Below are positions 5,950-64,000 of a DNA stretch of 64,000 nucleotides, in pieces; the first letter of the stretch is position 1; each line of letters begins with the position of its first letter. This DNA comes from an uncultured bacterium (GTDB lineage Bacteria > Omnitrophota > Omnitrophia > Omnitrophales > Abzuiibacteriaceae): contig CAYLXA010000001.1 in NCBI GenBank assembly GCA_964387845.1, forward strand, positions 345,038 to 409,037, in the 5' to 3' direction. The notes under the pieces were generated by a model, which worked only from the letters and a program-made list of their open reading frames with translations, searched no databases and was not told where the DNA came from. Position numbers and translations under genes: made by a program.

Positions 5950-5959
5950 GACGGCCTCC

Positions 5960-8366: not shown

Positions 8367-8403
8367 TTTTTACTTTTTTCCCGTATCGATACAGTGCCGA
8401 CTG

Positions 8404-8967: not shown

Positions 8968-9294
8968 ATTTTGGTGGCTCCTGTTTAGCTTCCTACTTTG
9001 CACTCTTATATACGAAATGCCCGCTCGTGCATGTGACATTCATCACTGCCCCAGCGTAACTTTAAAACAAAAATCACACTCTAATTAGAACGCTGGGACT
9101 GGACTCATTTCCTCTAGACTCACGCTTTTCTCAATGAAAATGAGTCCTGCACGAATTTTATCAATAAATGAAGATAGAAAGCAATTGCCAATAATTCTCA
9201 CAAATTATCGTAATTTGCCGTCAATTTATGAAGAAAATAATTGACCCATATCAGCGAAGTGCTAGAGTAAACAAAAAGTTGAGGAGGTGCTCAC

Positions 9295-24112: not shown

Positions 24113-25714
24113 ATGACATCTCTAAATAACCTAAAATCAGACGGAATCGAAATTAAAGGCGCTCTTACGCCTGCCTTCTCCGAAATCCTAACGCCTGAAG
24201 CCGTCAAATTTGTTGCGAGCCTTGAAAAAAAATTTGGGGCCCGTCGGCTTGAATTATTAGAAAAGCGCAAGGTCAGGCAAGCAGAAATCAACGCCGGCAA
24301 AATGCCGGACTTTCTAAGCGAAACCAAATCCGTCCGCGACAGCGACTGGAAAGTTGCACCGATCCCGAAAGACCTCCTCGAACGCAAAGTCGAAATCACA
24401 GGGCCCGTGGAACGCAAAATGATGATTAATGCGCTTAATTCCGGCGCCAATGTGTTCATGGCCGATTTCGAAGATTCCAACTCACCGACTTGGCAGAACA
24501 ACATCGAGGGGCATATAAATTTGCGCGACGCCGTCAATCGTACGATATCATTCAAAAACCCTGACGGAAAAGAATACCAACTGAACGATAAAATCGCGAC
24601 TTTGCTGGTTCGGCCGCGCGGCTGGCATTTAAACGAGAAACACATGACTGTGAGCGGCAAAGAAATCTCCGCTTCCTTGTTTGATTTTGGGTTTTTCTTT
24701 TTCCATAACGCGAAAACTTTGATCCAAAAAGGAACAGGCCCCTATTTTTATTTACCCAAAATGGAAAGCCACTTGGAAGCGCGTTTGTGGAATGATGTGT
24801 TTAATTTCGCACAGGATGAAATCAAAATCCCGCGCAGCTCAATTCGCGCGACGGTTTTGATTGAAACCATCTTAGCTTCGTTCGAAATGGATGAAATTTT
24901 GTACGAACTGAAAGATCACTCCGCAGGCCTCAATTGCGGACGCTGGGATTATATTTTCAGCTTCATCAAGAAATTCCGAGAGAAACCGGATTTCCTGCTT
25001 CCCGACCGTGCGCAAGTGACAATGGATAAGGCTTTCCTGAAGGCCTATGTCGAACTTTTGATCAAAACATGCCACCGCCGCGGCATTCACGCGATGGGCG
25101 GCATGGCGGCACAGATTCCTATTAAATCTGACCCCATTGCCAATGAAGCGGCGCTCGAAAAGGTCCGTCAGGACAAGCTTCGCGAAGTAAAAGCTGGCCA
25201 CGACGGCACTTGGGTTGCGCATCCGGGACTTATTCCGATCGCCATGGATGCCTTCAATCAAAATATGAAAGGTGCTAATCAATTAAATGTCGCACGTTCC
25301 GAAGTTCAAATTACGGCAAAAGATTTGCTCACCGTTCCAAAAGGCGATATCACCGAAGCCGGCCTCCGCAAAAATGTGAATGTCGGAATTCTCTACATCG
25401 AATCGTGGCTGCGCGGCTTGGGATGTGTACCACTTTATTACTTGATGGAAGACGCTGCAACTGCGGAAATCTCGCGCACGCAAGTGTGGCAATGGATCCG
25501 GCATCACGCGAAAATGACAAACGGTGTTCAAGTGACAGCTGAGTTGGTACAGAAAATCGTGAAGGAAGAACTTGCCGATATGGAAAAATCGGTTGGTGTT
25601 GAGAAATTTAAATCCGGAAAATTTAAACTTGCTTCAGAAATTTTCTACGAAATGAGTACTCGAAAAGAATGTCCTGACTTTTTAACGATCGAAGCTTATA
25701 AACATTTAGATTAA
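24113..25714 (+). CDS. aceB: malate synthase A
   Basis: The N-terminus and GPVERKMMINALNSGANVFMADFEDSNSPTW region are collinear with E. coli AceB; 533 aa. Confidence 0.95.
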   Translation: MTSLNNLKSDGIEIKGALTPAFSEILTPEAVKFVASLEKKFGARRLELLEKRKVRQAEINAGKMPDFLSETKSVRDSDWKVAPIPKDLLERKVEITGPVERKMMINALNSGANVFMADFEDSNSPTWQNNIEGHINLRDAVNRTISFKNPDGKEYQLNDKIATLLVRPRGWHLNEKHMTVSGKEISASLFDFGFFFFHNAKTLIQKGTGPYFYLPKMESHLEARLWNDVFNFAQDEIKIPRSSIRATVLIETILASFEMDEILYELKDHSAGLNCGRWDYIFSFIKKFREKPDFLLPDRAQVTMDKAFLKAYVELLIKTCHRRGIHAMGGMAAQIPIKSDPIANEAALEKVRQDKLREVKAGHDGTWVAHPGLIPIAMDAFNQNMKGANQLNVARSEVQITAKDLLTVPKGDITEAGLRKNVNVGILYIESWLRGLGCVPLYYLMEDAATAEISRTQVWQWIRHHAKMTNGVQVTAELVQKIVKEELADMEKSVGVEKFKSGKFKLASEIFYEMSTRKECPDFLTIEAYKHLD

Positions 25715-25775
25715 CTTCCCTCACCCCTCCCTCTCCCTCAGGGAGAGGGATAAAGGGAGAGGGGAATTAAGGGAG
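25715..25775. repeat. ccctctccc/gggagaggg palindromic repeat, copy 2 (aceB-aceA intergenic)
   Basis: ccctcacccctccctctccctcagggagagggataaagggagaggggaatt shares the perfect ccctctccctcagggagaggg palindrome and gggagaggggaatt with the copy at 1886-1980. Confidence 0.7.
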
Positions 25776-25780
25776 ACGCC

Positions 25781-27088
25781 ATGCAAAATATACCGCACAT
25801 AATGGAAAAAGATAAATTCATTCAATGGCTCCATGCCGAATGGAAGAACGAGTCCCGCTGGAAAGGCATTGTCAGACCTTACAGCGCTGAAGACGTTTGG
25901 AAATTAAAAGGGAGTGTTTACCGGATTCATTCACTCGCGAAGGCAGGCGCCAAACGGCTTTGGTCGCTTTTCAGCGAAGAAAAATATGTGAACACGCTGA
26001 GCGCCATCACCGGCAACCAGGCCATTCAGCAAGTGAAGGCCGGCCTCAAGGCGATTTACGTCAGCGGATGGCAAGTCGCGGCAGACGGCAATAATTCCCT
26101 GCGCATGTACCCCGATCAAAGCCTTTATCCTTCGGACAGCGTTCCTTATTTATTAAAACGCATCAACCATTCATTGATACGAGCTGACCAAATCCACCAC
26201 TTAAAGGGCGACAATTCTATTTATTGGATGGCGCCTCTTGTGGCCGATGCCGAAGCCGGATTCGGCGGTCCCTTAAATGCCTTTGAAGTGATGAAGATGA
26301 TGATTGAAGAAGGCGCTGCGGGCGTTCACTTTGAAGATCAGCTTGCGTCCGTTAAGAAGTGCGGCCATTTGGGCGGAAAAGTGCTGGTGCCGACGCGTGA
26401 ATTTATTACCAAATTGATTGCCGCCCGGCTCGCAGCAGATACTTCCGGTGTCGCCACGATTTTAGTCGCAAGGACCGACGCACACAGCGCTTCCCTTTTG
26501 ACGAGCGACATTGATCCTAACGACACACCCTTCATCGATAAAAAGAAGGAGCGCACGCATGAAGGCTTTTATCATGTGAAAGCCGGGCTTGAACAAGCCA
26601 TCGCGCGCGCGCTGGCCTATGCGCCTTATGCAGATTTGCTGTGGTTTGAAACTTCAACACCGGATTTAAAAGAGGCGAAGGAATTTGCGGAAGCGATTCA
26701 TAAAAAATTCCCTGGAAAATATTTGGCTTACAACTGTTCGCCCTCATTTAATTGGCGCGCCAAACTCGATGAAAAAACAATCGCCAAATTCCAGAGCGCA
26801 CTCGGCGATATGGGTTACAAATTCCAGTTTGTAACTCTGTCAGCATTCCACGCGCTCAACTACAGCATGTTCAGCCTCGCAAAAGGCTATAAAGAATCGG
26901 GGATGGCGGCTTATTCGAAATTGCAAGAAGCGGAATTCGATGCGGAAAAACTGGGCTACGAAGCTATCAAGCACCAAGAATTTGTGGGAACAGGCTATTT
27001 TGACGCAGTTACTGATGTTGCTTCACAAGGCACCGGCTCGACGCAAGCGATGAAAGGCTCCACCGAAGCCGAGCAGTTTCATAAGTAG
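25781..27088 (+). CDS. aceA: isocitrate lyase
   Basis: ICL signature [14 protein letters not shown]. 435 aa, directly downstream of aceB. Confidence 0.95.
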
Positions 27089-33479: not shown

Positions 33480-34999
<1,520 letters not shown>

Positions 35000-35005
35000 T
35001 TTTTC

Positions 35006-35082
35006 AGTTGTAAGTCGTAAGTGGCAAGTGTTAAGTTGATTGATTAACTTAGCACTTACAACTTACCACTTATCACTCGTTA
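35006..35082. repeat. hairpin repeat family 1, copy 3
   Basis: agttgtaagtcgtaagtggcaagtgttaagt...cttagcacttacaacttaccacttatcactcgttaatc. The right arm is near-identical to copy 1. Confidence 0.75.
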
Positions 35083-35083
35083 A

Positions 35084-36154
35084 TCAAATAATCAGCATCG
35101 CATCGCCATAGGAATAAAACCGGTAACGATTTTGAATGGCTGTTTGATACGCCTGTTTTAAATTTTCAACACCGCAAAATGCCGACACGAGCATGAGCAG
35201 CGTTGTCTTCGGTAAATGAAAGTTTGTGATCATCGCATCCACGATTTTAAATTCATACGGCGGATAAATAAACAAGTTTGTATCGCCCCGCTTTGGCTCC
35301 ACTTCGCACGGAATTGAATTTTTGGCGGCCGATTCGAGCGTCCGGACAACCGTTGTACCGCAGGCAATGACACGCCGGCCGGCAGTTTTGGCGAAATTAA
35401 TGAGCTCCGCGGTTTCATCCGGAATTTCAAAATATTCCGAATGCATTTGATGCTGCTCGATTTGGTCGTGAGCAACCGGCTGAAATGTTCCGTAGCCGAC
35501 ATGCAGTGTCACATAAGCAATTTGAATTCCTTTCGCTTCGATTTTTTTCAAAAGCGCTTCATCAAAATGAAGGCCGGCTGTCGGGCTTGCAACCGCACCC
35601 GGCTTACGCGCAAAAACCGTTTGATAAAGATCGCGGTCAATTTCGGAATCGGGCCTATCGATATAAGGCGGCAGCGGCACGCAGCCGATTTTATCGAGCT
35701 TTGTCTTTAAATCTCCTGTACCCTGAAATTCGAGATGGCGAATTCCGGTTGTGCCGTCAGCCGAATCTAAGACTTTTGCTTTTAGTTCAATTCCATCTGC
35801 AGAAAAATTCAAAACATGAGTTTCTTTCACGCGGCCCGAAGGTTTGAGCAGCGCTTCCCATCGATTGTTGCCTTGGTCTTTCAGCAAAAGCACTTCGACC
35901 GATCCGCCGGATTCTTTTTTGGCAAAAAGCCGTGCCGGCAGAACTTTGGTGTCGTTTAGAATCAAAAGATCGCCAGGAATCAAATAATCGAGAAGATTTG
36001 AAAAATGGCGATGCTCGATTTTGCCGCCTTCGCGGCCCAAAACCAAAAGCCGGGCTGCGGAACGTTCCGGATTGGCTTCTTGCGCAATCAACTCCTGCGG
36101 TAAAGCGTAATCGAAATCGCTTAATTTCAGCGGATAGCGTTTAGCGGATAGCAT
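35084..36154 (-). CDS. queA: S-adenosylmethionine:tRNA ribosyltransferase-isomerase
   Basis: VASPTAGLHF, LPPYI and QueA-length collinearity. Classic queA-tgt-yajC-secDF operon order. Confidence 0.95.
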   Translation of the reverse strand: MLSAKRYPLKLSDFDYALPQELIAQEANPERSAARLLVLGREGGKIEHRHFSNLLDYLIPGDLLILNDTKVLPARLFAKKESGGSVEVLLLKDQGNNRWEALLKPSGRVKETHVLNFSADGIELKAKVLDSADGTTGIRHLEFQGTGDLKTKLDKIGCVPLPPYIDRPDSEIDRDLYQTVFARKPGAVASPTAGLHFDEALLKKIEAKGIQIAYVTLHVGYGTFQPVAHDQIEQHQMHSEYFEIPDETAELINFAKTAGRRVIACGTTVVRTLESAAKNSIPCEVEPKRGDTNLFIYPPYEFKIVDAMITNFHLPKTTLLMLVSAFCGVENLKQAYQTAIQNRYRFYSYGDAMLII

Positions 36155-42154: not shown

Positions 42155-43690
42155 TTAGCGACGTCCTTTATTTCGATTTCTTTTTTTGTCTTTCGTAACT
42201 TTTTCGGGTTTTGAGAGCAATTCAAAATATGGCGAAACAAAAAATAACAAAAAACTTGCAATAATTGTAAATATAAGCTCAGAAAATTTGTCCTTCAGAA
42301 GTCTTCCAAATTCATCAAATGTGAACCATCCCAAATGATTGAGTATCATAAAAATTGTAACCGTAGACAATGCACATCTTAAAAGAAAAGTGAGATATGT
42401 ATTTATAGATCTAAGACTTATTAAAGAAATCGTGAATATGCAAAATCCAATTGTAAGGAACAATATGATTAGGCTCTTTTCTGGAGTGCTTCCCCAGGCA
42501 GTGAGGCAAAACGCTATCATCACGATAGATAAAATAAGAGATTGAAGGCCAATTTCAAAATCAAAATAATATTTTTTAGCTAAAAAATAAATGCAATAAA
42601 TAAAAGAAATGGTTGATAAGATTAAGAAATATAAATTATTTGCATCGAGAATGCTAATATGCGGCTGAGCTGACCAAATTTTCAAAGAAAATTTAATAGT
42701 TAACAATAATGATAAGCTAAAAATTGAGCCAAGAAATGCATAATAGTGCAACTGCTCTAATTTTCTACTTTTGGTTCGTAAAAAGAAATTTTTATACCCC
42801 GTTAAATTACCCCATAAACATGCCAAAAGAAACGGAAGAAAAAAATCGGAATAGAATTTCTTTGATGGAACCAAGAAATCTTTGAATATTGGAATTGAAT
42901 AAACATGAATAAGCAAGAGTGTTAAAAGTGGAAAATTGCTCAACTCATAAATTTTATTTTTCAACTCTGTGTCTTTCACCAAAATATAGAGAATTCCTAA
43001 AATAAACCAATTGATGGTTAATATGCTTGAAAGCATTAGTATAATCATGTCTCCGTACAGTCCAAATCCTCCACAAGCAGAAAAAGCATAAAGAATGGGT
43101 AACAAATAATTGAATATCTTTGTTCCGCTTTCATAGATACTTAATGTGGTTATTTTAAGTCTGATCGTTTTACCTGCATAAAAATTGTCAATCAATTGAT
43201 AAAATCTGCGGAGCAAATATGACGGCAGAAGTAATGGCAATATATAGATAATGCCTTTCACAAATTCCTTATAAATATGCGTTGCAGGCATTTTATCGAT
43301 TTCGGGAAAGTATATTTCATTTGTTAAAACTGTCCAAATCAGAATCCCTACATATACAAACATTTGCGCGAAAGTTTCTATGGATTCGTAGAAATTATTT
43401 CGAAGAAACTGTTCTGAAACCAATTTATATTTTTTTAAGAACACATTCAGTAAACTGCCAACGAGAAAACACAAAGATCGATCAAGAGGAGGGATTACAA
43501 AAAGGAAAACAAAAGAAAGTGTTGCCCACCATTTAATATCTAAACCTATAAAATATACATCTCTAAAGTTATATCTAAAAAAGATAAAAATCTTATTGAA
43601 ATCCAGATATTTTGACGCAAATACATAAAAAACTATAATGGTCAGAACTATTAAATATTTTCTAATCTTGAAGATAACGTTTAGTATCAT
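42155..43690 (-). CDS. large polytopic membrane protein in a low-GC islet (Wzy/O-antigen-polymerase-like topology)
   Basis: 511 aa with at least 12 hydrophobic helices and essentially no soluble domain. Gene GC roughly 28% versus ~50% for the window. Confidence 0.55.
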   Translation of the reverse strand: MILNVIFKIRKYLIVLTIIVFYVFASKYLDFNKIFIFFRYNFRDVYFIGLDIKWWATLSFVFLFVIPPLDRSLCFLVGSLLNVFLKKYKLVSEQFLRNNFYESIETFAQMFVYVGILIWTVLTNEIYFPEIDKMPATHIYKEFVKGIIYILPLLLPSYLLRRFYQLIDNFYAGKTIRLKITTLSIYESGTKIFNYLLPILYAFSACGGFGLYGDMIILMLSSILTINWFILGILYILVKDTELKNKIYELSNFPLLTLLLIHVYSIPIFKDFLVPSKKFYSDFFLPFLLACLWGNLTGYKNFFLRTKSRKLEQLHYYAFLGSIFSLSLLLTIKFSLKIWSAQPHISILDANNLYFLILSTISFIYCIYFLAKKYYFDFEIGLQSLILSIVMIAFCLTAWGSTPEKSLIILFLTIGFCIFTISLISLRSINTYLTFLLRCALSTVTIFMILNHLGWFTFDEFGRLLKDKFSELIFTIIASFLLFFVSPYFELLSKPEKVTKDKKRNRNKGRR

Positions 43691-48275: not shown

Positions 48276-48884
48276 ATGGCAACCCTCGTATTGGTTAGGC
48301 ACGGCGAAAGCCAATGGAACTTGGAAAACAAATTTACCGGCTGGGTCGATGTGGAACTCACCGACAAAGGCCGCGAAGAAGCAAAGAAAGCCGGCGAAAA
48401 ACTAAAAGGTTTCAAATTTGATAAGGCTTACACATCAACTTTGAAACGCGCGCAAAATACACTTGCCGCAATTTTAAAAGTCACAGGCCAGGAAAATATT
48501 CCCATCGAAAAAGACAAAGCGCTTAACGAAAGAATGTACGGCGATTTGCAGGGTTTGAACAAAGCCGAAACCGCAAAGAAATACGGCGACGAGCAAGTTC
48601 ATATTTGGCGCCGAAGTTACGACATCGCGCCGCCAAACGGCGAAAGCTTGAAAGATACGGCTGCGCGCACGCTTCCTTATTTTCAGCAAAAAATCATGGC
48701 TGATGTGAAAGCCGGCAAAAACATCATCGTCGCCGCGCACGGCAACAGTTTGCGCTCAATCGTCATGGATTTGGACAAACTCACGAAGGAACAGGTTCTG
48801 GAACTTAATCTCGGAACCGGCATTCCGATCGTTTATGAGTTTGACAAAAGTTTGAAAATTCTCTCCAAAAAAGAACTTTCTTAA
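48276..48884 (+). CDS. gpmA: 2,3-bisphosphoglycerate-dependent phosphoglycerate mutase (short form)
   Basis: LVRHGESQWNLENKFTGW, a histidine phosphatase core with RHG and a catalytic His later. Confidence 0.9.
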   Translation: MATLVLVRHGESQWNLENKFTGWVDVELTDKGREEAKKAGEKLKGFKFDKAYTSTLKRAQNTLAAILKVTGQENIPIEKDKALNERMYGDLQGLNKAETAKKYGDEQVHIWRRSYDIAPPNGESLKDTAARTLPYFQQKIMADVKAGKNIIVAAHGNSLRSIVMDLDKLTKEQVLELNLGTGIPIVYEFDKSLKILSKKELS

Positions 48885-50986
48885 TTTTTCAACGACGGTA
48901 GTTCGAGCCTTAAAACCGGCCTTAACGTGAATGCTCTGTGGTTTCCCGGTTTAATTTCGGCCACATTTGCTTTCAGCGGCAAAATGGTTTCCGATTTTCC
49001 CTTTTTCCGGAAATAATAACCAAGCCTTCCTCTGATCGGCCCGATTTCTCTCAGGACCATTAAAATATTTTGATCAAGCATAACCATAATTGCATTTTGA
49101 TCGATTTGGTTCACTGTCAGAGAGTACGAATCCTGAGAATGATCAAAGTAGCTCAAAACCGATTTTTTACTGATGTCTCCGTTTTCAATGATGTAAACAT
49201 AAAACCTGTTTTCGTTTATTCCCGTTAGGATGAAATTACCGGAATCTTGGTAAGCCAAAACAAGCCCCGCAGCCTCTGTATTTTCAAATTTGACCGTAAA
49301 ACCGACAGGCTCATAAGATTTTTTCCCTAAAAAAATCGGAATTTCAACGGGAGGCGCAGTTTTATCGTTAAAATCATTAAAAATTTCAGAAAATTCCTCG
49401 AAAATCATATTGTCACCCATTGAAAATTCATCCGGGGAAAGATGTAAGTCATTGATAGTATTAAAATTAGAATTCCATTCAGCCAACCACGGTTTCTCAT
49501 CCTGTGCAATGAAAACATAAAGCGCTTTTTTTTCTTCCCCGACGCACACATGACGCTGCAAAAGATAGTTCGGGATTAAATCAGAAAAGGAACGTTCGAA
49601 CGAACCGGCATAGCAGTATTGCGGGTTTTGTTTCATAAAATCCGCGATTTGAAAAGTCAGAGTCGAAACAATGTTGTTATAATTTTTTCGAGGCTCTAAT
49701 GTGCGCTGAAGATTTGAATAATTAAAAGGAACAGGCCATAAAATGACAAATGCAAACGCCGCCATGGGCAGAAATTGAGGAAAATATTTCCCGGCACTCA
49801 TACGATTCTGAAGCCAGCGGATCGACAAAGCGGAAAGAATTAATAAAAAATAACTGGAAAGATAGAAATAATAAGTCGCTGACTTCACATAATCGGTTCC
49901 GCGAAGCGACATGCGCCCCGCCGCAATTCCGAAAAGCATGAAGCCCAGATAAACAATTGAAATGATGCTTACAAAATGGCCGGCGGATTCTTTTTTATCT
50001 CGATAGCACAAAAACAAATAGAAAAATGAACCTAAAAGGAAAAAAAGAAAAATAAATCCGAATGTGGCGATTAACTCATTCGGTAACGCGGTAAAATCCC
50101 AAACCGCCTTTTTGAAATTATTAATGAACCGAATATCAAAGAAAACCGGAATTAAAAATGCAGCTGCCGTCAGGCCGCTGAAAGTAATGATGTTTGAAAA
50201 AACAGACCGCAAACTCAAAAAATCCGGATTGTCGACAGGGCCTAGCAACGACGGCGGCATCGCAATAACAAACTCGGCGAGACCGAGAATAAAATATAAC
50301 GCTGCCGGAAAAATAAAAATTAGCCGTTTTTCTTTTTGGCTTAAAAATTCCGCATGCGATTTCGGGAAAATAATCATTAGAAAAATTCCGCAAATGGCCC
50401 ATGCATAGAAAAATGACTCGTGAAACAAATTCGCCAAAGAAAAAAACAAAACAGCCCGTAACAGGCGGGATTTCCGGTGCACTGCTTCGCTCATCCGGAT
50501 CATCCAATAAAGCCCTAAAACAAAAAAAATCAGGCCCAGAAGATACGGGTTGATGTGACGCCAATAAACCATTTCGAAACCCGGATACTGAAATAAAAAT
50601 GCCAGAGCACATAAACCGCCGATGAGTGCACCGCACAAGTGCGCGGTCAAAAGATACAATACGAACACGCTCGCTGCATGCAGCAGGACACTCAAAATTC
50701 CCGCAACCAGCATGCTGTGCCCATAGAAAATATCTAAAACCGCATGATATAAATAAAAACCCGGACGAAAAAGAAAATAATCGCCCGGGCGGTTAAAACT
50801 GGAGTGTGTGTAAGTCAGCGTATGCCAGAAAAAATCCCAATCGGATTTAACAAGCGCGCGTTCCGCAATCAAGTTGATATGGTCGTCGCGGGGAATATCG
50901 ATAAGGCCGTTCCGGTAAATCAAAAACGAGCAGGTGGTAATGAAAATAAAAATCAGGATGTTCTTGGCAAGCAGCCGGGTCATCAT
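48881..50986 (-). CDS. large polytopic membrane protein with C-terminal soluble domain (GT-C/ArnT-like fold?), hypothetical
   Basis: 701 aa. About 12 transmembrane helices in the first ~430 aa, then a beta-rich ~270-aa domain. 4-nt overlap with the addA stop. Confidence 0.5.
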   Translation of the reverse strand: MMTRLLAKNILIFIFITTCSFLIYRNGLIDIPRDDHINLIAERALVKSDWDFFWHTLTYTHSSFNRPGDYFLFRPGFYLYHAVLDIFYGHSMLVAGILSVLLHAASVFVLYLLTAHLCGALIGGLCALAFLFQYPGFEMVYWRHINPYLLGLIFFVLGLYWMIRMSEAVHRKSRLLRAVLFFSLANLFHESFFYAWAICGIFLMIIFPKSHAEFLSQKEKRLIFIFPAALYFILGLAEFVIAMPPSLLGPVDNPDFLSLRSVFSNIITFSGLTAAAFLIPVFFDIRFINNFKKAVWDFTALPNELIATFGFIFLFFLLGSFFYLFLCYRDKKESAGHFVSIISIVYLGFMLFGIAAGRMSLRGTDYVKSATYYFYLSSYFLLILSALSIRWLQNRMSAGKYFPQFLPMAAFAFVILWPVPFNYSNLQRTLEPRKNYNNIVSTLTFQIADFMKQNPQYCYAGSFERSFSDLIPNYLLQRHVCVGEEKKALYVFIAQDEKPWLAEWNSNFNTINDLHLSPDEFSMGDNMIFEEFSEIFNDFNDKTAPPVEIPIFLGKKSYEPVGFTVKFENTEAAGLVLAYQDSGNFILTGINENRFYVYIIENGDISKKSVLSYFDHSQDSYSLTVNQIDQNAIMVMLDQNILMVLREIGPIRGRLGYYFRKKGKSETILPLKANVAEIKPGNHRAFTLRPVLRLELPSLKN

Positions 50987-57440: not shown

Positions 57441-57947
57441 CTACTTTTTATACGTTGCAAACGAACTTTCAGTTTCCCAGACCGTCACGGAATGAACCGG
57501 AAATTTCTGGGACACTGCATAATCATAAATCAATTTGGCGAGGGCTTCGGCGGTCGGATTGATCGGCATTGTGTAAAAAACTTCCTTTTTTGCCTTTAAA
57601 TCGGGAATGATGGGGTCATCTTGATGTAAAAGCAGTTTATGATCTAAAACATCATTGATCCACGCTTTCATGACCCGGCCGATATCATGAAAGTCATAAA
57701 CCATGCCGCGCTTATCCAATGATTCGGAATGAAGCTCCACTTGAGCACGCGCGTTGTGACCATGCAGATTCCGGCATTTACCTTCGTAGTGAATTAGCCG
57801 GTGGCCGTAGCAGAAGTGAATTTCTTTTGTGACTGTGTACATAAGACAATAGGTTAAATAAGCGCCTTTGCCGTATTTTACCTTAAATCCATCTGAGTGG
57901 AATAGATGAGTTTTAAGTGTTGAATAGAACCGCATATTTTTTATCAT
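57441..57947 (-). CDS. queD: 6-carboxy-5,6,7,8-tetrahydropterin synthase (QueD/PTPS family)
   Basis: TKEIHFCYGHRL and CRNLHGHNA match the CxxxHGH zinc-site pattern. The true start may be the internal MYTV (57842); the N-terminal extension is unusual. Confidence 0.75.
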   Translation of the reverse strand: MIKNMRFYSTLKTHLFHSDGFKVKYGKGAYLTYCLMYTVTKEIHFCYGHRLIHYEGKCRNLHGHNARAQVELHSESLDKRGMVYDFHDIGRVMKAWINDVLDHKLLLHQDDPIIPDLKAKKEVFYTMPINPTAEALAKLIYDYAVSQKFPVHSVTVWETESSFATYKK

Positions 57948-58001: not shown

Positions 58002-58030
58002 TTGACAAACCCCATTCACCCAGCTAAACT
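58002..58030 (+). promoter_or_regulatory. sigma70-like promoter for the riboswitch leader
   Basis: TTGACA (58002-58007), 17-nt spacer, TAAACT (58025-58030). Confidence 0.45.
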
Positions 58031-58057: not shown

Positions 58058-58145
58058 TAGGAAACGATAAAGGTAAACCAATCGAAAGATTGGGGCGCAA
58101 AGCATGAGGTCCTTAATGGATGGCTCGGCTACCGAAATTCTGAAA
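58058..58145 (+). promoter_or_regulatory. c-di-GMP-I (GEMM) riboswitch aptamer
   Basis: AGGTAAACCAATCGAAAGATTGGGGCGCAAAGC closely matches the conserved P1 core of the Vibrio Vc2 aptamer as I recall it (GGCAAACCAUUCGAAAGAGUGGGACGCAAAGC), including a GNRA loop. The 3' closing GGCTACCGAAAT matches GGUUACCGAUGG. Confidence 0.75.
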
Positions 58146-58174: not shown

Positions 58175-58206
58175 CGCGACCCAATTTTTTGGGTCGTTTT
58201 TTTTTG
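58175..58206 (+). terminator. intrinsic terminator (riboswitch expression platform), ending 8 nt before the pilX-like ATG
   Basis: cgcgacccaattttttgggtcg stem-loop followed by TTTTTTTTT. Confidence 0.75.
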
Positions 58207-58213: not shown

Positions 58214-59506
58214 ATGGTGAGACAAATGAAGAAAAAAATCATGAGGAAGAAGGCAAGGTTAAACCAGAAAGGCGTAGCGCTGATCTGGGTTTATCTGCTT
58301 TCTGCCTTTTTAACCACCATGATTTATAGTTTTTATAGTTTGAATATTTGGCAAACCAGAACCGATGTGGTGGACTCATCGGCTGAAATTCAAGCCTTTT
58401 ACTTGGCGGAAGCAGCGGTCGATGACATGTACAAATATATTAATGATCAAACAGAGGACGGCGCCGCAATTAGCACCACGATAAATCGCGGGCCTTATAA
58501 CCTGGGAACTAGCGGAACCTATTCGTCAACTTATGATCCAACGAACAGCATTGTTAATGCAATCGGAACTGTTTCTATCGGAAGCGGGACAATTACCAAG
58601 AAACTCTTCACAAAAATTGTTATCGGTACCCCTTATGATATTCCACCGGGAGTTCAAGCCGGCATTACTGCAGGTTCTGCAGTAGAGTTGGCCGGACTCT
58701 TGGTGGTTGACGGTCGCAATCACGATGCTGCCGGTGAAGCCATTGAAGACGGAATCCCGGGCGTTGTTTATTATGAAAATTCGGATGGCCTTACTTACGA
58801 TGATTATGTCGGCGTCGGCGGGCCCTCCACGTTGCCCAACGAACCCGGTAACCCTATTGATCCGACATCAATATCGCCAACGCCCTCGAATGCAAATTTG
58901 ACATCGCCGGAAGCCGTCTTCGGACTTTCAAACGGTGATTTGGATGCTTATAAACATTCCACCGCACCCACTTCGCCGGTGGACGGAGTTTTTTATTATG
59001 AAGCACCGCTCGGGAGTGGCGGAACCATCGATATTGACTTGGGCAGTTCGGAAACTCCGGGTTCAGGCGTACTTGTTCTTGACAACCTTCAAAACCCAAC
59101 TGCAACCGTTAATTTGACAGGTACTTTTAATGGATTGGTTATTGTTCGGGACGGCAATTACAATCTGGCTGCTGACACTTTGGTGGCTGGTGCGCTCGTG
59201 AATGTTTCAGCAAGCGCTTCCACAGTTGTTTTGTCCGGCCCTGCTTACGATCCGGATGGGAAAAATGGTGTAGCACGAATTTTGTACTGTGTCCAATGCA
59301 TCGAAGCAACAGAATTGCCCGAAGGGCTTAATAATTCTACCGTTGCGGGGATTGGTTCTTGGGTTAATTTCAGAAATGCAACAACATCCAATCCTCTTGT
59401 TTACATACCAGCATCAACACCAGGCGGAACCACCGGAACCGTCGCTGGTGGCGGCACTCTCGGAGGCGGCGGAGCCATGGGTGCATCCGGGCTTAGCGGA
59501 AAATAA
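58214..59506 (+). CDS. PilX-N-domain protein (type IV pilus minor pilin / tip-associated, adhesin-like)
   Basis: N-terminus QKGVALIWVYLLSAFLTTMIYSF resembles the PilX_N pattern (RG-x-ALI-hydrophobic). The rest is G/T/S/N/P-rich with no transmembrane helices; 430 aa. Confidence 0.55.
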   Translation: MVRQMKKKIMRKKARLNQKGVALIWVYLLSAFLTTMIYSFYSLNIWQTRTDVVDSSAEIQAFYLAEAAVDDMYKYINDQTEDGAAISTTINRGPYNLGTSGTYSSTYDPTNSIVNAIGTVSIGSGTITKKLFTKIVIGTPYDIPPGVQAGITAGSAVELAGLLVVDGRNHDAAGEAIEDGIPGVVYYENSDGLTYDDYVGVGGPSTLPNEPGNPIDPTSISPTPSNANLTSPEAVFGLSNGDLDAYKHSTAPTSPVDGVFYYEAPLGSGGTIDIDLGSSETPGSGVLVLDNLQNPTATVNLTGTFNGLVIVRDGNYNLAADTLVAGALVNVSASASTVVLSGPAYDPDGKNGVARILYCVQCIEATELPEGLNNSTVAGIGSWVNFRNATTSNPLVYIPASTPGGTTGTVAGGGTLGGGGAMGASGLSGK

Positions 59507-59784
59507 TTATCTTAACCGTCACAACCTAAATTTCCTTCTAAGAGCATGATCGTTCTGCCTGTTCTATTGTCAGCGATTTATTTCGATACCATCAATCATA
59601 TCTAACGGCTTTCTTGCCAAAATTAGACCTCGCTATTTCTTAATCTACGCAATTCTAATAATCATAACATTGCTTTAATAAAGGACTTACATTGGCTTCA
59701 CAATTTGCAAAGCGTAAAGCACGTAGTTACACTTTATATATAAGATAAAAAGCCGTATTTTAAGAACAGGTCGTTGGCGAGGAT

Positions 59785-60255
59785 TTGGCAGTGAAACAGC
59801 AAGGTTACCGAATCATGAAAAACTTGAAGAACGGCGAAAGCGGAACAACATTGATGGAAGTCCTTTTTGCACTTTCGATATTCTCTATTATCCTGATCGC
59901 GGTTGCCAGTGCATTCAATTTCGGTGCAGCCATGAACGCATCTGCCAAAAACAAAATTCTGGTTGCCACCGACGCCAAAAAAATCATGGAGCAAGTCCGC
60001 ATGGTTGCTGATTCTGTTAGTTTGGACGCAGTAACCGACGCAGACTATTGGAAAAATGTCAGCCAAACCGGCTGGCTCCAAACCGAAGTTTTTTCTTCAT
60101 CATCGCTGCCGTCCATTAATATGAATGTCACATTTCCGGAAGGAACTTCAGGTGATCCTTTATATGTTCTCGTAACGATTACTTGGGCGGAGAAAAACGG
60201 GACCAAAACCTATACGCTCCACAATAAAATCACCAAAAGGGTTCTTTTGTCATGA
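59785..60255 (+). CDS. type IV pilin-like / pseudopilin (prepilin N-terminal methylation motif)
   Basis: G-TTLMEVLFALSIFSIILIAV: Glu at +5 and a hydrophobic helix, the class III signal peptide. The start is likely the internal ATG at 59815 or the GTG at 59791. Confidence 0.7.
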   Translation: MAVKQQGYRIMKNLKNGESGTTLMEVLFALSIFSIILIAVASAFNFGAAMNASAKNKILVATDAKKIMEQVRMVADSVSLDAVTDADYWKNVSQTGWLQTEVFSSSSLPSINMNVTFPEGTSGDPLYVLVTITWAEKNGTKTYTLHNKITKRVLLS

Positions 60256-60821
60256 CAACGATACGCCGCTCTTTGATGCTCAATGAGCGTGGCTTTACAA
60301 TTTTCGAAACCTTCACCAGCATTGCTTTATTGATGTTTTTGACTGTTGTCATTTTTGGCGCTATCAAGTTATCAAGGCTCATTTTTGATCAGAGCCTCAT
60401 CAATGTTGATGTGCACGGAAATTTAAAAAGAACCGTCGCCGTTATGACACGCGACTTAGAAGAGGCTAAGCAAGGAATCCCCGGCAGCATGGGATCCTGC
60501 AACATAGATAACCCTTCCAATGTGTGCGTGCAATCAGCTGCTCTGTCTTTTAAAGTCCCAGAGTCAACCGATGTAGGTGGCACCACTTATTACAAAACAA
60601 TTAAGTATACATTCAGTTCCGTTAATAAAACAATCTCCCGCCAAGAAATCAATTATTCCGGAACGGCAGGAACAACGATTGTCATAGGCCGAAATATTAC
60701 CGGCGCAACTTTTTATGCTGAGTCTCTTCTCAATATGATTAAAATTAGCTTGGTCGGCTCAAAAAATAGCTCAACACCAACGACTGTCACAACCCAAGTT
60801 TTCCTTAGAAATAAATCGTAA
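60252..60821 (+). CDS. type IV pilin-like / pseudopilin
   Basis: ERG-FTIFETFTSIALLMFLTVVIF is the classic GFTxxE prepilin motif. 4-nt overlap with the upstream pilin gene. Confidence 0.7.
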   Translation: MTTIRRSLMLNERGFTIFETFTSIALLMFLTVVIFGAIKLSRLIFDQSLINVDVHGNLKRTVAVMTRDLEEAKQGIPGSMGSCNIDNPSNVCVQSAALSFKVPESTDVGGTTYYKTIKYTFSSVNKTISRQEINYSGTAGTTIVIGRNITGATFYAESLLNMIKISLVGSKNSSTPTTVTTQVFLRNKS

Positions 60822-60826
60822 AGCCC

Positions 60827-61789
60827 ATGAGTTCTTACCGATGGATAGTTCTTTTAGCTCTCGTGGCAACCCTTTGCCTTGAACTGCCCATCTCGGCTGA
60901 AATCAGCGATACAAAACAAGGAAAATTGATTTACACCCTGAAAAACCAGGAAGCCCCGCTTGCGGAACGTAAAACAGCTGTTCAAGAATTAGCAGCCAAT
61001 CCAACCGATGAAAGCCGGCTTATTTTTATTGAAATTCTGGAAGACCAAAATCAATCCCGAATTATTCACCAGCATATCGCTTCGGCGATCATTGCTCAAA
61101 ACGACGCCGATTTCTTTAACATACTCAAGAAAAAGCTGGTCGAAAAGAAAACGGGTTCTTATTTGCGTGAGGTCAGCCTTTCCATTCTCTGGCGCCACAA
61201 TTCAGAATCGATTTTACCGATGATTCTCGCCTTGGTGCAGGATCCATTCGAAACTTTATCTTTCCGCTCAATCGTCATCCGCTATCTAATACCCGTTGCC
61301 GGAAAACCGGAAGTTAAGGAAGTTTTGTCTAATATGATTAAAGACTCAAATGAATTACTCGCAATTAAAAAATTGGCCTCCAATGTTTTAGCCAAGAGCG
61401 GTGACCGAAATGCTTTTTTGAATATTTATCAAGATATCGCGTTTGACCGTACGCGCACCGTCAAAGAAAGAGAGGAAGCTTTGAGGAAATTCGAAGCGGA
61501 GGGGCCGGCTATTTTGGAAGAACGTTTATTCAAAATTCTTGACGATAAAAATGAAACAACCGAAATGAAAAGAATCGCATTTGAAAAGCTTTCTACCGAT
61601 CAGAACCGGGCGCGGACTATTCTGCCTCAATTAAAACGGCTGGAAAGAATGGGCCCGCTCGTAGGTATTGATGACGCGCTTCGTGAAGATCTGCGCCGTT
61701 GGATAGAAAAAACAGAAGAAGAAATCAGGGTAAGTTCCGGCCAAGAAGGCCAAGAACCTCCGGATCCGATGACAGGCCAGCCGCTATAG
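60827..61789 (+). CDS. secreted HEAT/PBS-lyase-like repeat protein
   Basis: Signal peptide MSSYRWIVLLALVATLCLELPISA. Repeated ~30-aa alpha-helical units (ERKTAVQELAANP..., IASAIIAQND..., KKLASNVLAKSGD...). Confidence 0.5.
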   Translation: MSSYRWIVLLALVATLCLELPISAEISDTKQGKLIYTLKNQEAPLAERKTAVQELAANPTDESRLIFIEILEDQNQSRIIHQHIASAIIAQNDADFFNILKKKLVEKKTGSYLREVSLSILWRHNSESILPMILALVQDPFETLSFRSIVIRYLIPVAGKPEVKEVLSNMIKDSNELLAIKKLASNVLAKSGDRNAFLNIYQDIAFDRTRTVKEREEALRKFEAEGPAILEERLFKILDDKNETTEMKRIAFEKLSTDQNRARTILPQLKRLERMGPLVGIDDALREDLRRWIEKTEEEIRVSSGQEGQEPPDPMTGQPL

Positions 61790-61790
61790 A

Positions 61791-63476
61791 TTAAAGATAA
61801 ATTGACTCGCTGGCTTCCTGCCACCAGGTTTTCGGCTCAATCTCAACGCCAATCGGCCCATAAGGAGGCGGATTGGTCTTCAAAGACACATCGTAAGCCC
61901 AATTGCGGGCCGGGGCCGTATAATTGTTTCCGCCGTATGACCATTGCCCGGTTGCGACTTGGCTGTCCCACAAATTAATGAATGCGCCGCTGATATTGGC
62001 ATTGCGGCCGCTCCAATTCTCGAGAAATCTGGGATAATTCTCAAGCCCTCCGCTATACACTGAACCGCTCGTTTGGACAATGCCGCTGATAAACCCCGCA
62101 TTTACCGTCGTGTCGGTCGCATTGCGGTTGCTGAAGCTGGTATTGGCATCACTCCAATTATTGGATAAAATATTCATAGCATCGGAAATTAACCCAACCG
62201 ATTTTTTATTGACCGTATTAAAATCACCCTGTACATACAACGGATTGTTGGTCACAACCGCCAAACCTCCGGCATATCCAGAAGGGCCGATTTCGGAACC
62301 ATTGACGAGCCGAATCCCGTGAGAGGAAGCGGTGCTTTGCCCGGTTGCCGGAACGGCATCTGTCCTGGTTGCGTAAATCAATCCGTTAGACGGGAAATAG
62401 CCGGAAGCATTTAACTTTTGAATGTCAATCTGTGTGACAATCACATTATGCGAAGCATTTTCTCGGTAATTGCGAAACTGCATCTGCGACACAGTTCCTG
62501 CCGGAAGCGAGCCCGTAATGTTTGTACCGCTTGAATTGTAAACCTGGCCGTCGATCACCCGCAAGCCGGCATGCGTATCATAAAACCCGCCGGGCTGGAT
62601 TGACGGAATTGTAACAGGCTGCACATATTGAACGCCGTGCGGTGCGCTCTGCACCGTTCCGCTCCAAGTGGAGGTTGCCAGATTGGCCCAGTTGGCGTTT
62701 GTGCTATCGAGTCTGGGACTTGTGGTCATCACCGGAAAATTGGTGGTACTTCCCTGTTTAATTCTTACGGTTCCGGCAGGCATGACACTGGGATCATCCT
62801 TACGCGCACGCGAAAAATCATGGGTAGCATGGATAGAATTAACATCCAGCGTTAACGTCCTCCCAGATTCGGCGCCGAGATGGATGTTGCCGTTGGCGTG
62901 CATATCTCCGGTCATCGTCATATTGGCGCCAGGCTGGACTTCTAAATCCGAATTGTAAAAAACGGAATACGAAAAAATACTCGTTTGTTTGAGTGAAGCA
63001 ATTTGATGCACGGTTGAGCTTGCCTGAATCGGGAAAAGCGACGCCAGAGCACTATTGTCCGGATGGCTGGATCTGACAATTACCTCAAAATCCTGGACAA
63101 CCTTTTGAAAGCCGCTTTCTGAAAGCAAATAGGTCGGGCATTGGCTTAAAGTAGTTGAAGGATTTGTCGGCGGTGCACAAACTACCCGGTAAAACCCGGA
63201 CGTAACGCCGTCAGCGTAAGTAAATTGATACTCCTGGTTGGGCGCAATGCTGTTTAAATCAAAATTGGCAATCCGGTCCGCCAAATGAAAAAGCGCACGC
63301 TCCATCACGCCCTGGCTGGTGTGATAAGAAGCGACTTTCATTTGATTATAACGCTGCATCCGGACTTCCTGAATCTGCTGAATGAGGGAAACCGCGGCAA
63401 AACTTTCCAGAACGGCCCCCAACAAAACGACTGATATTAATACGAACCCGCCCTTTTCATTTTGGACCTGTCTCAT
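61791..63476 (-). CDS. large PilX-N-like N-terminus, S/T/N/G-rich putative pilus-associated adhesin
   Basis: Start refined to MRQVQNEKGGFVLISVVLLGAVL. About 560 aa, low-complexity extracellular-type composition. Confidence 0.45.
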   Translation of the reverse strand: MRQVQNEKGGFVLISVVLLGAVLESFAAVSLIQQIQEVRMQRYNQMKVASYHTSQGVMERALFHLADRIANFDLNSIAPNQEYQFTYADGVTSGFYRVVCAPPTNPSTTLSQCPTYLLSESGFQKVVQDFEVIVRSSHPDNSALASLFPIQASSTVHQIASLKQTSIFSYSVFYNSDLEVQPGANMTMTGDMHANGNIHLGAESGRTLTLDVNSIHATHDFSRARKDDPSVMPAGTVRIKQGSTTNFPVMTTSPRLDSTNANWANLATSTWSGTVQSAPHGVQYVQPVTIPSIQPGGFYDTHAGLRVIDGQVYNSSGTNITGSLPAGTVSQMQFRNYRENASHNVIVTQIDIQKLNASGYFPSNGLIYATRTDAVPATGQSTASSHGIRLVNGSEIGPSGYAGGLAVVTNNPLYVQGDFNTVNKKSVGLISDAMNILSNNWSDANTSFSNRNATDTTVNAGFISGIVQTSGSVYSGGLENYPRFLENWSGRNANISGAFINLWDSQVATGQWSYGGNNYTAPARNWAYDVSLKTNPPPYGPIGVEIEPKTWWQEASESIYL

Positions 63477-63495
63477 GACGAAGCCCTCCTTTTGG

Positions 63496-64000
63496 TCAAT
63501 TCCTGACCTGCACAATATTCGATAATGTCAAAGAATGAGTCCTGTTTTCAGTAGTCGTCGTTTTTTGTGCGGTTAAGCCAATCTCAATTTCATCTGCATT
63601 CAAATTAACATTCATCGTGTTGTCCCGAAATAAAACGGTTTGAATATGATTCCCCACAATCCGGCCCGCTTCGCTTGGTGTCGAGACAATCAGTTGAGAA
63701 ATTCCATTCGCCGTAGAAACTGAATACGTATAAGTACGGCGGCAGATGTTATTAACGCACAAATTGGTTCCGGGGGTACTATTGCATTGATTGTCGCAAT
63801 CAATACTGTTTGAGCATGTCTGCGGCGCGGTTCCGCTTGTCACATCGGCAAATGCCGAGCAAGCTGCACCCGATAAAAAGAGCGGTAAATCCAGCGTGAT
63901 TTGATTATTGTTTGGCGATGCCGGGATGGTGATGGTTGACCGGCGTGCTTTTCTGAGCGCAACCGTCACAGACTGGAGCGCGCGCCTTGCATTTCTTTGA
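63496..64000 (-). CDS. partial secreted Cys-rich protein (N-terminus beyond window edge), part of the pilin-like cluster
   Basis: The ORF-track M at 63969 is a GTG, and the frame stays open to position 64000. Cys-rich segment CSNSIDCDNQCNSTPGTNLCVNNIC. Confidence 0.35.
   Translation of the reverse strand, partial: QRNARRALQSVTVALRKARRSTITIPASPNNNQITLDLPLFLSGAACSAFADVTSGTAPQTCSNSIDCDNQCNSTPGTNLCVNNICRRTYTYSVSTANGISQLIVSTPSEAGRIVGNHIQTVLFRDNTMNVNLNADEIEIGLTAQKTTTTENRTHSLTLSNIVQVRN

Follow-up and report, generated by a model that had tools for sequence, protein, structure and literature searches.

Two paralogous minor-pilin sets, one preceded by a c-di-GMP-I-class riboswitch, at a probable type IVa pilus tip locus in Omnitrophota

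What can a group of pilin-like genes contribute when no gene for pilus assembly lies beside it? This question is raised by one end of a 64,000-nucleotide stretch of DNA (the window) from a Candidatus Omnitrophota bacterium, where a sequence-only reading had described an atypical pilin-like cluster with no assembly gene and had proposed a minor-pilin and tip-adhesin module, controlled by c-di-GMP, whose pilus would be encoded at some other place. The T2SSE, T2SSF, secretin and PilM families were indeed absent from the 37 ORFs scanned, a set that includes every non-overlapping window ORF of at least 184 aa, and all three parts of the proposal gained support. We consider it probable that the locus encodes two paralogous core minor-pilin sets that serve a type IVa pilus, the genes for its motor, platform, alignment complex and secretin lying elsewhere, with a c-di-GMP-I switch before gene A.

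The pilin-like proteins of the window are encoded in two convergent operons, as had been described, and the stop codons of genes D and E are 1 nt apart (Table 1). Close relatives reveal the full locus to be seven genes that form two paralogous trios, each made up of two prepilins, one PilV/GspI-like and one PilW/GspJ-like, and of a large PilX/GspK-like protein lacking Glu5. Set 1 (G-F-E) lies on the minus strand, with G past the window end, and set 2 (A-B-C) lies on the plus strand and is followed by D. The start of gene C overlaps the stop of gene B by 4 nt, and a gap of 308 nt separates A from B. Set 1 is conserved throughout the phylum and beyond, whereas set 2 is clade specific, diverges faster and is accompanied by D.

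Table 1. Genes and regulatory features at the end of the window
Feature	Coordinates	Strand	Description
Putative sigma-70-like promoter of the gene A leader	58002..58030	+	TTGACA, 17-nt spacer, TAAACT; 10/12 matches in a consensus scan, with promoter-like matches at least as frequent in shuffled sequence as here
c-di-GMP-I class (GEMM-I clan) riboswitch aptamer	58063..58137	+	Rfam RF03167
Predicted intrinsic terminator (expression platform)	58176..58206	+	Stem GCGACCCAA / TTGGGTCGT, then nine T; terminator scan
Gene A, large minor pilin (PilX/GspK-like), set 2	58214..59506	+	430 aa; without Glu5; beta-solenoid; disordered Gly-rich tail
Conserved block in the A-B gap	59700..59775	+	Comparison of the window with L002
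Gene B, PilV/GspI-like prepilin of set 2	59815..60255	+	N-terminus GESG/TTLMEV
Gene C, mid-size prepilin of set 2	60252..60821	+	NERG/FTIFETF; PilW/GspJ-like by position and size
Gene D, non-pilin partner of set 2	60827..61789	+	320 aa; Sec-type signal peptide; probably alpha-solenoid (HEAT-like)
Gene E, large minor pilin (PilX/GspK-like), set 1	61791..63473	-	560 aa; NEKG/GFVLISVV; inserted beta-solenoid (ComZ / cyanobacterial PilX / HpsA type)
Gene F (3' portion), set 1 prepilin (PilW/GspJ-like)	63496..64000, continues beyond	-	Six-Cys insert; frame leaves window

The two sets are tied together by the paralogy of their smaller members. B and C, recognized earlier as small prepilins, share the G/xxxxE motif with F and G, and the complete homologs in the relative L002 have 218 aa and the N-terminus NENG/FSLLELL (F) or 148 aa and HQKG/FTLVEF (G, a PilV-like prepilin; the G past the window end is of about this length). 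B aligned over its full length with the G family, Glu5 being present in at least 90% of that alignment, and its globular domain still matched that of G at about 2e-8 in both directions when the N-terminal helix was masked. The C and F families aligned over their full length in hhalign (probability, 99.65%; E value, 5e-25), and Glu5 is invariant in each of the two alignments. On these comparisons, B is a paralog of G and C a paralog of F. Alignment to Escherichia coli GspJ is limited to the N-terminal helix, and the designation of C and F as PilW/GspJ-like rests on their size, gene order and mutual homology. The partial Cys-rich gene noted previously is F, which has six Cys in the part of its frame that lies within the window; its Cys-rich insert is restricted to the clade with the seven-gene locus.

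Glu5 is missing from the GspK-like N-termini of the large subunits, A and E (LNQKG/VALIWVYLLSAFL in A), and the sequence likeness of these proteins to each other is limited to this PilX_N-type module in the first 70 residues. Structure prediction gave both proteins a pilin fold carrying a beta-solenoid, with a mean pLDDT of 86 for E and a moderately confident model for A (pTM, 0.56), in which the blocks that cover residues 141 to 360 had a pLDDT of 77 to 95. The Ser/Thr/Asn/Gly-rich regions that had been taken for low complexity are thus confidently folded solenoids, and disorder is limited to the Gly-rich tail of A (approximately residues 396 to 430). The fold of A matched GspK (9.7), ice-binding proteins (approximately 9) and ComZ (8.0). 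Nor does the label "atypical" hold: in cyanobacteria and Thermus (ComZ), a solenoid-lengthened PilX is the rule, and members of the E family are spread over several hundred GTDB species.

ComZ was also the best structural match of E; the Foldseek TM-score is low (0.23), indicating likeness at the domain level with no rigid overall match. This match, and a Thermus igniterrae homolog of E that stands where ComZ does, behind three prepilin genes, could mean that set 1 forms the tip of a competence (DNA-uptake) pilus like Thermus ComZ-PilA2 rather than an adhesin or motility tip. We regard this as unlikely. The crystallized ComZ has no sequence similarity to E or to the T. igniterrae homolog, and its DNA-binding lysines could not be mapped. 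In sequence, E instead matches the HpsA/PilX_EPS lineage, which is tied to motility and polysaccharide (HpsA HMM, 5e-28 and 97 bits, far below the equivalog cutoff of 400 bits), and none of ComEA, ComEC and DprA adjoins the locus in the flanks of relatives.

In other genomes, homologs of the G-F-E trio lie within complete operons for type IVa pili, which run from PilT through two PilB, PilC, major pilins and PilM to a secretin, with three or four small genes between PilM and the secretin, at the PilN/O/P positions. At loci L048 and L013, the trio sits between PilB-PilB-PilC and PilM, three small genes and the secretin; after PilB-PilB-PilC, L048 has two major pilins, and L013 has three small genes that are unrelated. 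A PilT-like ATPase of 354 aa is encoded upstream in L048. Brocadia, Planctomycetota and NC10 loci showed similar linkage to pilus genes. Of 70 E-family genes, 44 are directly preceded by at least two prepilin genes and 58 by at least one. In the clade studied here, the locus stands among housekeeping genes, the seven genes and their flanks are conserved in L002, L085 and L087, and no assembly genes were found within 8 to 10 kb on either side in relatives. The operons of other genomes therefore support type IVa machinery that would be encoded outside the window.

The same operons bear on a second alternative, in which the trios are GspI-J-K-type tips of a type II secretion pseudopilus and D is a cargo, or cargo adaptor, pushed by a dedicated tip. 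D is Sec-exported and probably an alpha-solenoid (HEAT-like) protein, much as the sequence-only reading had it, with a signal-peptide-like N-terminus and a HEAT_2 score of 22.2 bits, under the cutoff of 27.7. Its family is tiny, with only 36 representatives among 1.84 billion. In the window, in L002, in both L024 copies, in L085 and in L087, the B, C and A genes are followed by a D homolog. This constant companionship with the A-type set suits the type II reading, as do the best NCBIfam match of B, which is GspI, and the PilB/GspE-like ATPases with MshEN N-domains of the linked operons. However, PilM_2 and genes at the PilN/O/P positions are present in those operons, as is the PilT-like ATPase in L048; GspC and GspM are absent from them, and T2SSL matches PilM weakly. 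The closest characterized relatives (ComZ, cyanobacterial PilX and HpsA) are type IV pilus proteins, and nothing points to secretion of D past the periplasm. We consider a type II role improbable.

Profile searches recognized the families more readily than the window's own proteins, all of which scored under every curated cutoff. B came close, with 20.3 bits against N_methyl (gathering cutoff, 21.2), 14.4 against TIGR02532 (cutoff, 16.3), and E values of 3.9e-6 for GspI and 4.4e-5 for PilV, both under their cutoffs. C had no match to N_methyl, and neither A nor E matched PilX_N. The earlier assignment of A and E as PilX_N-like stands at the family level only, where 4 of 27 E-family members match PilX_N and distant profile matches of A carry PF14341. 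For the window sequences, prepilin HMM recognition thus nearly failed outright, yet this is outweighed by the evidence from context, paralogy and fold. Proteins of an ordinary kind, either membrane anchored or exported by Sec, whose N-termini resemble those of pilins by chance would likewise miss the N_methyl, TIGR02532 and PilX_N thresholds, but that explanation is effectively refuted by context and fold data, with Gly-1 and Glu5 conserved across families, homologs inside type IV pilus operons, and homologs that pass the thresholds (among them the L048 major pilins, at 36 bits to N_methyl).

[quoted passage not shown] It is a full-length match to its Rfam model (62.9 bits; gathering score, 59; E value, 1.8e-13). 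The L002 ortholog scores 61.1 bits, and that of L087 scores as a canonical RF01051 (62.4 bits) with a longer P3; at the core position that distinguishes the models (CGC-A/G-AAGC), the window has A, like RF01051. The clade member L085 had no riboswitch match at the gathering score. Among 29 stretches scanned, 8 had riboswitches 5' of such trios, and all nine c-di-GMP-I-class matches lay directly 5' of such a trio. The window and L002 share an almost invariant leader, from the putative promoter to the terminator, with both promoter hexamers and the terminator identical, whereas protein A is only 67% identical. The terminator ends 8 nt before the ATG of A. In ViennaRNA, its 5' arm can alternatively pair with the aptamer segment AUUGGGGCGC (-20.1 kcal/mol), and this duplex is present in the minimum-free-energy fold of a transcript ending at 58186, which predicts a terminator with a competing anti-terminator. 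From thermodynamic folding, we infer that bound c-di-GMP favors the terminator and that the switch is OFF. The conserved block, the sole conserved part of the A-B gap, may be a separate promoter for B-C-D, in which case control by the riboswitch may extend to A only.

The analogous GspI-J-K, Thermus ComZ-PilA2 and cyanobacterial PilX-PilV-PilW suggest that each trio is first cleaved by prepilin peptidase, then assembles in the inner membrane, primes polymerization of the major pilin and finishes at the filament tip. The triangular solenoid carried on the pilin fold of E or A would cap the fiber and could bind a surface, polysaccharide, host cell or DNA. A, and possibly B-C-D, would be transcribed behind the switch, so that the second tip set would be made at low c-di-GMP and a single machine could produce pili bearing either of two tips. 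Both trios are ordinary core minor-pilin (tip/priming) sets, and the clade-specific parts are the second set and its riboswitch control. Systems of this kind are known already, and the phylum in which this one occurs has been little studied.

Cyanobacterial core minor-pilin sets (PilX-PilV-PilW-FimT) comprise "Com" and "EPS" types, and HpsA is homologous to the PilX_EPS subfamily of the latter (Schuergers et al., bioRxiv 10.64898/2026.02.12.705559). Like these, the present locus has two paralogous sets per genome, a PilX pilin fold interrupted by an ice-binding-protein-like beta-solenoid and no PilY1 gene, and it is encoded apart from the assembly genes; the two cyanobacterial sets are likewise differentially regulated by second messengers. 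It differs in that neither operon showed a fourth pilin of the FimT/GspH type, A and E are unrelated in sequence past their shared module, set 2 has the extra HEAT-like protein, and a c-di-GMP riboswitch acts in cis, in Omnitrophota. E, at 560 aa, is also far shorter than HpsA (~1500 aa). With Thermus thermophilus ComZ and PilA1-PilA3 (PDB 6QVI; Salleh et al. 2019, PMC6561018), the locus shares a GspK-like pilin domain with a triangular, ice-binding-protein-like solenoid and a gene placed after small prepilin genes. The type II GspI-GspJ-GspK tip (PDB 3CI0, 5VTM) has the same small, mid-size and large trio, the large member lacking Glu5, but the GspK insertion is alpha-helical, and relatives of the present locus have PilM, PilN/O/P-position genes, secretin and PilT rather than GspC/L/M. 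In Clostridioides difficile, the c-di-GMP riboswitch Cdi-2-4 upstream of pilA1 controls type IV pilus genes (PMC6200980), likewise from a 5' leader, by transcription termination or read-through. That switch is class II, ON and placed before a major pilin operon, whereas the one described here is class I, predicted to be OFF and placed before a minor-pilin (tip) set.

The locus at 58214-64000 carries six reading frames, A to F, arranged as two convergent operons, A-D and F-E (see the table), and the stop codons of D and E are one base apart, which confirmed the convergent arrangement proposed in the sequence-only reading. The complete cluster is visible in a relative whose E is 86% identical (loci L001 and L002), in which G, a PilV-like prepilin gene lying beyond the end of our window, is followed by F and E and is convergent with A, B, C, and D. 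The cluster is flanked there by QueD-AddB-AddA on one side and by tRNA methyltransferase, CBS, P-II, and GltBD genes on the other, and two further loci (L085 and L087), whose A proteins are only 31-33% identical, have these seven genes with matching flanks. More than 448 homologs of E were found, and the source-named ones come nearly all from Candidatus Omnitrophota MAGs. A terminator is absent between the convergent genes D and E (61789-61793), and the two transcripts would overlap as antisense unless each ended inside the opposite gene.

Features of the minor pilin locus and its leader (a slash follows the glycine that ends the leader peptide)
Feature	Position	Strand	Size	N-terminus or detail
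Sigma-70-like promoter	58002-58030	+		leader of A
c-di-GMP-I clan (CL00126) riboswitch aptamer	58063-58137	+		RF03167, 62.9 bits vs gathering score 59, E 1.8e-13
Strong terminator hairpin with nine T	58176-58206	+		ends 8 nt before the ATG of A
A	58214-59506	+	430 aa	LNQKG/VALIWVYLL
B	59815-60255	+	146 aa	GESG/TTLMEV
C	60252-60821	+	189 aa	NERG/FTIFETF
D	60827-61789	+	320 aa	resembles a signal peptide
E	61791-63473	-	560 aa	NEKG/GFVLISVV
F	63496 to beyond 64000	-	partial, frame leaves window	six cysteines
G ortholog (L002)			148 aa	HQKG/FTLVEF
F ortholog (L002)			218 aa	NENG/FSLLELL

The rest of the window is housekeeping in nature (cytochrome c biogenesis and multihaem cytochromes, aconitase, glyoxylate shunt, SecDF, RecJ, Tgt, QueA, AddAB, and QueD). 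The seven-gene block seems to have been inserted into a conserved que neighbourhood, given that queD lies on one side of it and, in the relatives L085 (14336-14977) and L087 (14614-15276), queC on the other and that Tgt and QueA are also encoded within the window (que-related coordinates 33480-36154 and 57441-57947). Cytochrome c biogenesis genes (CcsA- and ResB-like) sit beside multihaem cytochromes at 217-9039 (doubled CXXCH, NrfB-like, NapC/NirT, and c554), in a group that includes a 753-aa reading frame without a Pfam match (3862-6123), and this gene group suggests a capacity for respiratory or extracellular electron transfer in this Omnitrophota genome. Malate synthase adjoins isocitrate lyase at 24113-27088, with aconitase and isocitrate dehydrogenase nearby, and two large minus-strand frames of 511 and 701 aa (42155-43690 and 48881-50986) have no Pfam match at E<=0.01.

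The small proteins carry the class III prepilin motif of a short basic leader ending in Gly, about 20 hydrophobic residues, and Glu at +5. It was read directly in B (GESG/TTLME) and C (NERG/FTIFE), as claimed from the sequence alone, and it is also present in the orthologs of F (NENG/FSLLE) and G (HQKG/FTLVE) from L002. Glu5 is invariant in the alignments of F and C, is found in at least 90% of the G/B alignment, and is absent from A and E. Curated models gave less: B stayed under the cut-offs of both N_methyl (PF07963; 20.3 vs 21.2) and TIGR02532 (14.4 vs 16.3), with subthreshold matches to GspI (3.9e-6), PilV, and HpsB, and it scored 27.3 on the GspI equivalog, whose cut-off is 44.35. C matched neither N_methyl nor TIGR02532 and had almost nothing among curated HMMs, and no window protein matched the GspJ or GspK models. 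Scores of this order were also obtained on N_methyl for the homologs in the Omnitrophota locus L048 (G, 20.6; F, 16.1), where the major pilins of the same operon clear the cut-off with 36 and 31 bits. Comparison with E. coli K-12 GspH, GspI, and GspJ by hhalign aligned the N-terminal helices only, and thus an equivalence of F and C to GspJ/PilW was not demonstrable; against PDB sequences, the F and C profiles matched only via the N-terminal helix of major pilins. B, C, and F are predicted to be cleaved and N-methylated by a PilD/GspO-type prepilin peptidase, a gene for which was not found in the window. F further contains an insert of about 40 residues with 6 to 8 cysteines (CSAF...C..S.DC..QC......LC.NNIC; window 63600-63760), which is seen in the F genes of L002 (9328-9984), L085 (13073-13720), L087 (13275-13985), and L024 (9223-9951). 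This insert is limited to the clade with the seven-gene locus, is missing from other Omnitrophota F homologs (L018 and L048, no Cys), and may form a disulfide-rich knob on the tip complex.

The large proteins A and E have a pilin-type N-terminal helix without Glu5. They had been described as PilX_N-like. Neither A nor E matched PilX_N (PF14341) at E<=1; 4 of 27 E-family members did (best E 6e-5), and distant profile matches of A carry PF14341. E scored 97.3 bits (E 5e-28) against the NCBIfam HpsA model (NF038301) over three stretches, the best of which aligns residues 464-525 to profile positions 1332-1396 of 1503, and the model has an equivalog cut-off of 400 bits and a length of about 1500 aa. 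By these profile matches, E is homologous to the conserved C-terminal portion of HpsA, the cyanobacterial homolog of PilX_EPS, and is not an HpsA equivalog. The predicted structure of E was confident (pLDDT 86.3, pTM 0.81), and the only significant PDB match to the model in Foldseek was ComZ of Thermus thermophilus (E 9e-8, though with a TM of 0.23). The model of A was less confident (pLDDT 75.6, pTM 0.56) and has a helix at residues 2-79 and a sheet of four strands, together with a beta-rich domain that was predicted well and a Gly-rich tail that is disordered. Both proteins showed structural similarity to GspK or PilX, which bore out the pilin fold anticipated for them; the appended part, expected to be a beta-sandwich adhesin domain, was instead an ice-binding-protein-like triangular beta-solenoid attached to the pilin domain, as in the ComZ/cyanobacterial PilX class. 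The S/T/N/G-rich regions that had been taken for low complexity are folded solenoids in the predicted structures of E and A. The same pair of likenesses was published for ComZ, with a GspK-like pilin domain and a solenoid resembling ice-binding protein (PMC6561018), and the cyanobacterial PilX homologs, which include a subfamily homologous to HpsA, have all been described in the same way (bioRxiv 10.64898/2026.02.12.705559). Neither the E-family profile nor the Thermus homolog matched any PDB sequence, ComZ included. Verru_Chthon cassette proteins were rejected as relatives, their matches being weak and confined to the N-terminus (E 0.003-0.03).

The two operons proved to be paralogous. Iterated HMM searches with full-length pilins drifted because the hydrophobic N-terminal helix is common to all families, and they were repeated with that helix masked. 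The globular domain of B then matched G at about 2e-8 in both directions, and the two families align over their full length, as do those of C and F (hhalign probability 99.65%, E 5e-25); in A and E, the similarity is confined to the first ~70 residues, made up of the helix and a QAFYLAE motif (hhalign E 6e-11). Judged from this paralogy and the distribution of Glu5, each operon encodes a small and a mid-size prepilin together with a large subunit that lacks Glu5, following the GspI/J/K or PilV/W/X pattern. L024 has the B-C-A-D module twice, flanking G-F-E, and the first trio of L021 and L009 is followed by another whose large subunit is different. In several non-Omnitrophota genomes (L025, L026, L033, L044, and L049), the E-type solenoid pilin occurs as two or three paralogs in tandem, and the large tip subunit appears to have been multiplied repeatedly.

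The machine that these trios would serve is not encoded in the window. T2SSE, T2SSF, secretin, and PilM families were absent from the 37 window reading frames scanned, in agreement with the sequence-only reading, and no assembly genes were seen in the 8-10 kb fetched on each side in close relatives. It is normal for minor pilin operons to sit apart from the assembly genes, as they do here. Linkage of homologs to PilB/PilC/PilM-Q was seen elsewhere (L048, L013, L023, L040, L028, L042, L068, and L082). In L048 the order is a PilT-like ATPase, a small MshEN protein, two PilB-type ATPases, PilC, two 119-aa major pilins, G, F, E, PilM, three small genes, and the secretin; L013 is similar, but three unrelated small genes replace the major pilins, and partial versions occur in L023, Brocadia pituitae (L040), Planctomycetota, NC10, and other loci. 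Among the 70 E-family genes with enough upstream sequence, canonical prepilin genes lie directly upstream of most (at least one in 58, at least two in 44). GspI/GspJ/GspK equivalog cut-offs were not reached, and the context of the relatives is Pil-type, not GspC/L/M. Given the trio homologs within pil operons and the prepilin genes upstream of E-family genes, we conclude that the trios are probably the core minor pilins of a type IVa pilus. When one genome was scanned for each GTDB species, 573 relatives of E were found, in Omnitrophota, Planctomycetota (including Brocadia), Verrucomicrobiota, NC10, Nitrospinota, Ignavibacteria, Zixibacteria, Syntrophus, Acidobacteria, Bdellovibrionales, Deinococcus, and Thermus. 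The homolog in Thermus igniterrae follows three prepilin genes, which is the ComZ position, and has no sequence similarity to the crystallised ComZ. Our literature search gave nothing specific on type IV pili of Omnitrophota.

Control by c-di-GMP, suspected from the sequence, was supported by a riboswitch upstream of A that scores above the Rfam gathering score and is the only one in the window. Riboswitches were called by Rfam scans; our own covariance model was abandoned, MAFFT having misaligned the L024 copy. The L087 ortholog, which has a longer P3, scored 62.4 bits on RF01051 (gathering score 35), and the window aptamer has the canonical A at the core position separating RF01051 from the GGC variant model (RF03167). 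On these two grounds, we interpret the window riboswitch as a c-di-GMP sensor of the ordinary kind whose P3 is short. From promoter to terminator, the leader of L002 is almost unchanged from that of the window, although the two A proteins share only 67% identity. In folding calculations, the aptamer segment AUUGGGGCGC was able to pair with the 5' arm of the terminator (duplex energy, -20 kcal/mol), and, for a transcript that has not yet reached the 3' arm, this anti-terminator was the minimum-free-energy fold. Ligand-stabilised folding of the aptamer should favour the terminator over the anti-terminator, and this model predicts, with moderate confidence, an OFF switch.

Riboswitches of clan CL00126, each followed by a hairpin and a U run, lie directly upstream of G-F-E in L024, L008, L010, L009, and L018 and also upstream of the second trio in L009; all nine riboswitch matches in the 29 stretches scanned were directly upstream of such trios. 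The two L009 leaders (8716-8800 and 11670-11754) are nearly identical, have their own terminators, and precede tandem trios of 158/216/543 aa and 162/177/501 aa, and the whole riboswitch-trio unit appears to have been duplicated there. No riboswitch was detected upstream of G in L002, even at E<=1, and only set 2 (A-B-C) is predicted to be riboswitch-gated in the seven-gene clade. GGDEF, EAL, HD-GYP, and PilZ proteins were not found in the window, where the riboswitch is the only link to c-di-GMP. The 308-nt gap between A and B (59507-59814) is mostly unconserved, with a block of ~75 nt (59700-59775) nearly identical in L002 that may be a separate promoter or other regulatory element for B-C-D. 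In L013, a response-regulator receiver fused to an HD_5 (PF13487) domain, which we take to be of the HD-GYP type and hence a c-di-GMP phosphodiesterase, is encoded at 4706-5761 between the second PilB and PilC of the type IV pilus operon, and a PilZ-domain gene lies near the locus in L085 (17034 onward); both hint that c-di-GMP governs pili in this phylum.

D is the sole non-pilin of the locus and is located after each A-type set. It had been described as a secreted HEAT-repeat protein; the signal peptide was recovered, and the HEAT_2 score of 22.2 fell below the Pfam cut-off of 27.7. D had no match among PDB sequences, and its family is tiny (36 representatives among 1.84 billion). None of the six proteins had a Pfam match to the PilY1/Neisseria_PilC domain, and the position of D, a putative Sec-exported non-pilin encoded with a minor pilin set, recalls that of PilY1 by analogy.

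We considered that set 2 together with D could make up a second type of pilus tip that c-di-GMP controls via the riboswitch, in which D would act either as a tip subunit in the role of PilY1 or as tip-presented cargo, with one machine re-tooled between two functions. On this reading, riboswitch-coupled trios would be a general design in the phylum; in L009, each of two tandem trios has its own near-identical riboswitch. We regard this reading as speculative and, taken as a whole, rather unlikely. If true, a single type IV pilus machine would be switched, for example, between partner or host attachment and surface motility or DNA uptake. Omnitrophota are an uncultured phylum suspected of host-dependent lifestyles and thought to be dependent on other cells. 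The likely contact organ in such a phylum is the pilus tip, and a second-messenger-gated choice of two tips would give a concrete, testable handle on lifestyle switching.

In summary, proteins that were unnamed in the window, and whose source-named E-family relatives are mostly labelled hypothetical protein, now have an evidence-based annotation. A solenoid-bearing tip pilin of the ComZ/PilX_EPS/HpsA type with two small partners is widespread beyond cyanobacteria and Thermus, its family ranging over Omnitrophota, Planctomycetota including anammox bacteria, Verrucomicrobiota, NC10, Nitrospinota, Ignavibacteria, and Thermus/Deinococcus, and in Omnitrophota these tip sets lie repeatedly behind c-di-GMP-I riboswitches. 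The locus represents a known kind of system and leaves the general understanding of type IV pili unchanged. The nearest described systems are the cyanobacterial "Com" and "EPS" core minor pilin sets, with their solenoid-bearing PilX subunits, followed by Thermus ComZ with PilA1-3 and the GspIJK tip complex. Unlike these, the locus described here has no FimT/GspH-type pilin, and it adds a second, clade-specific set with a solenoid that has no sequence relation to that of E, the partner D, the Cys-rich insert in F, and control by a class I riboswitch; the precedent for a riboswitch on pilus genes, at C. difficile pilA1, is a class II ON switch.
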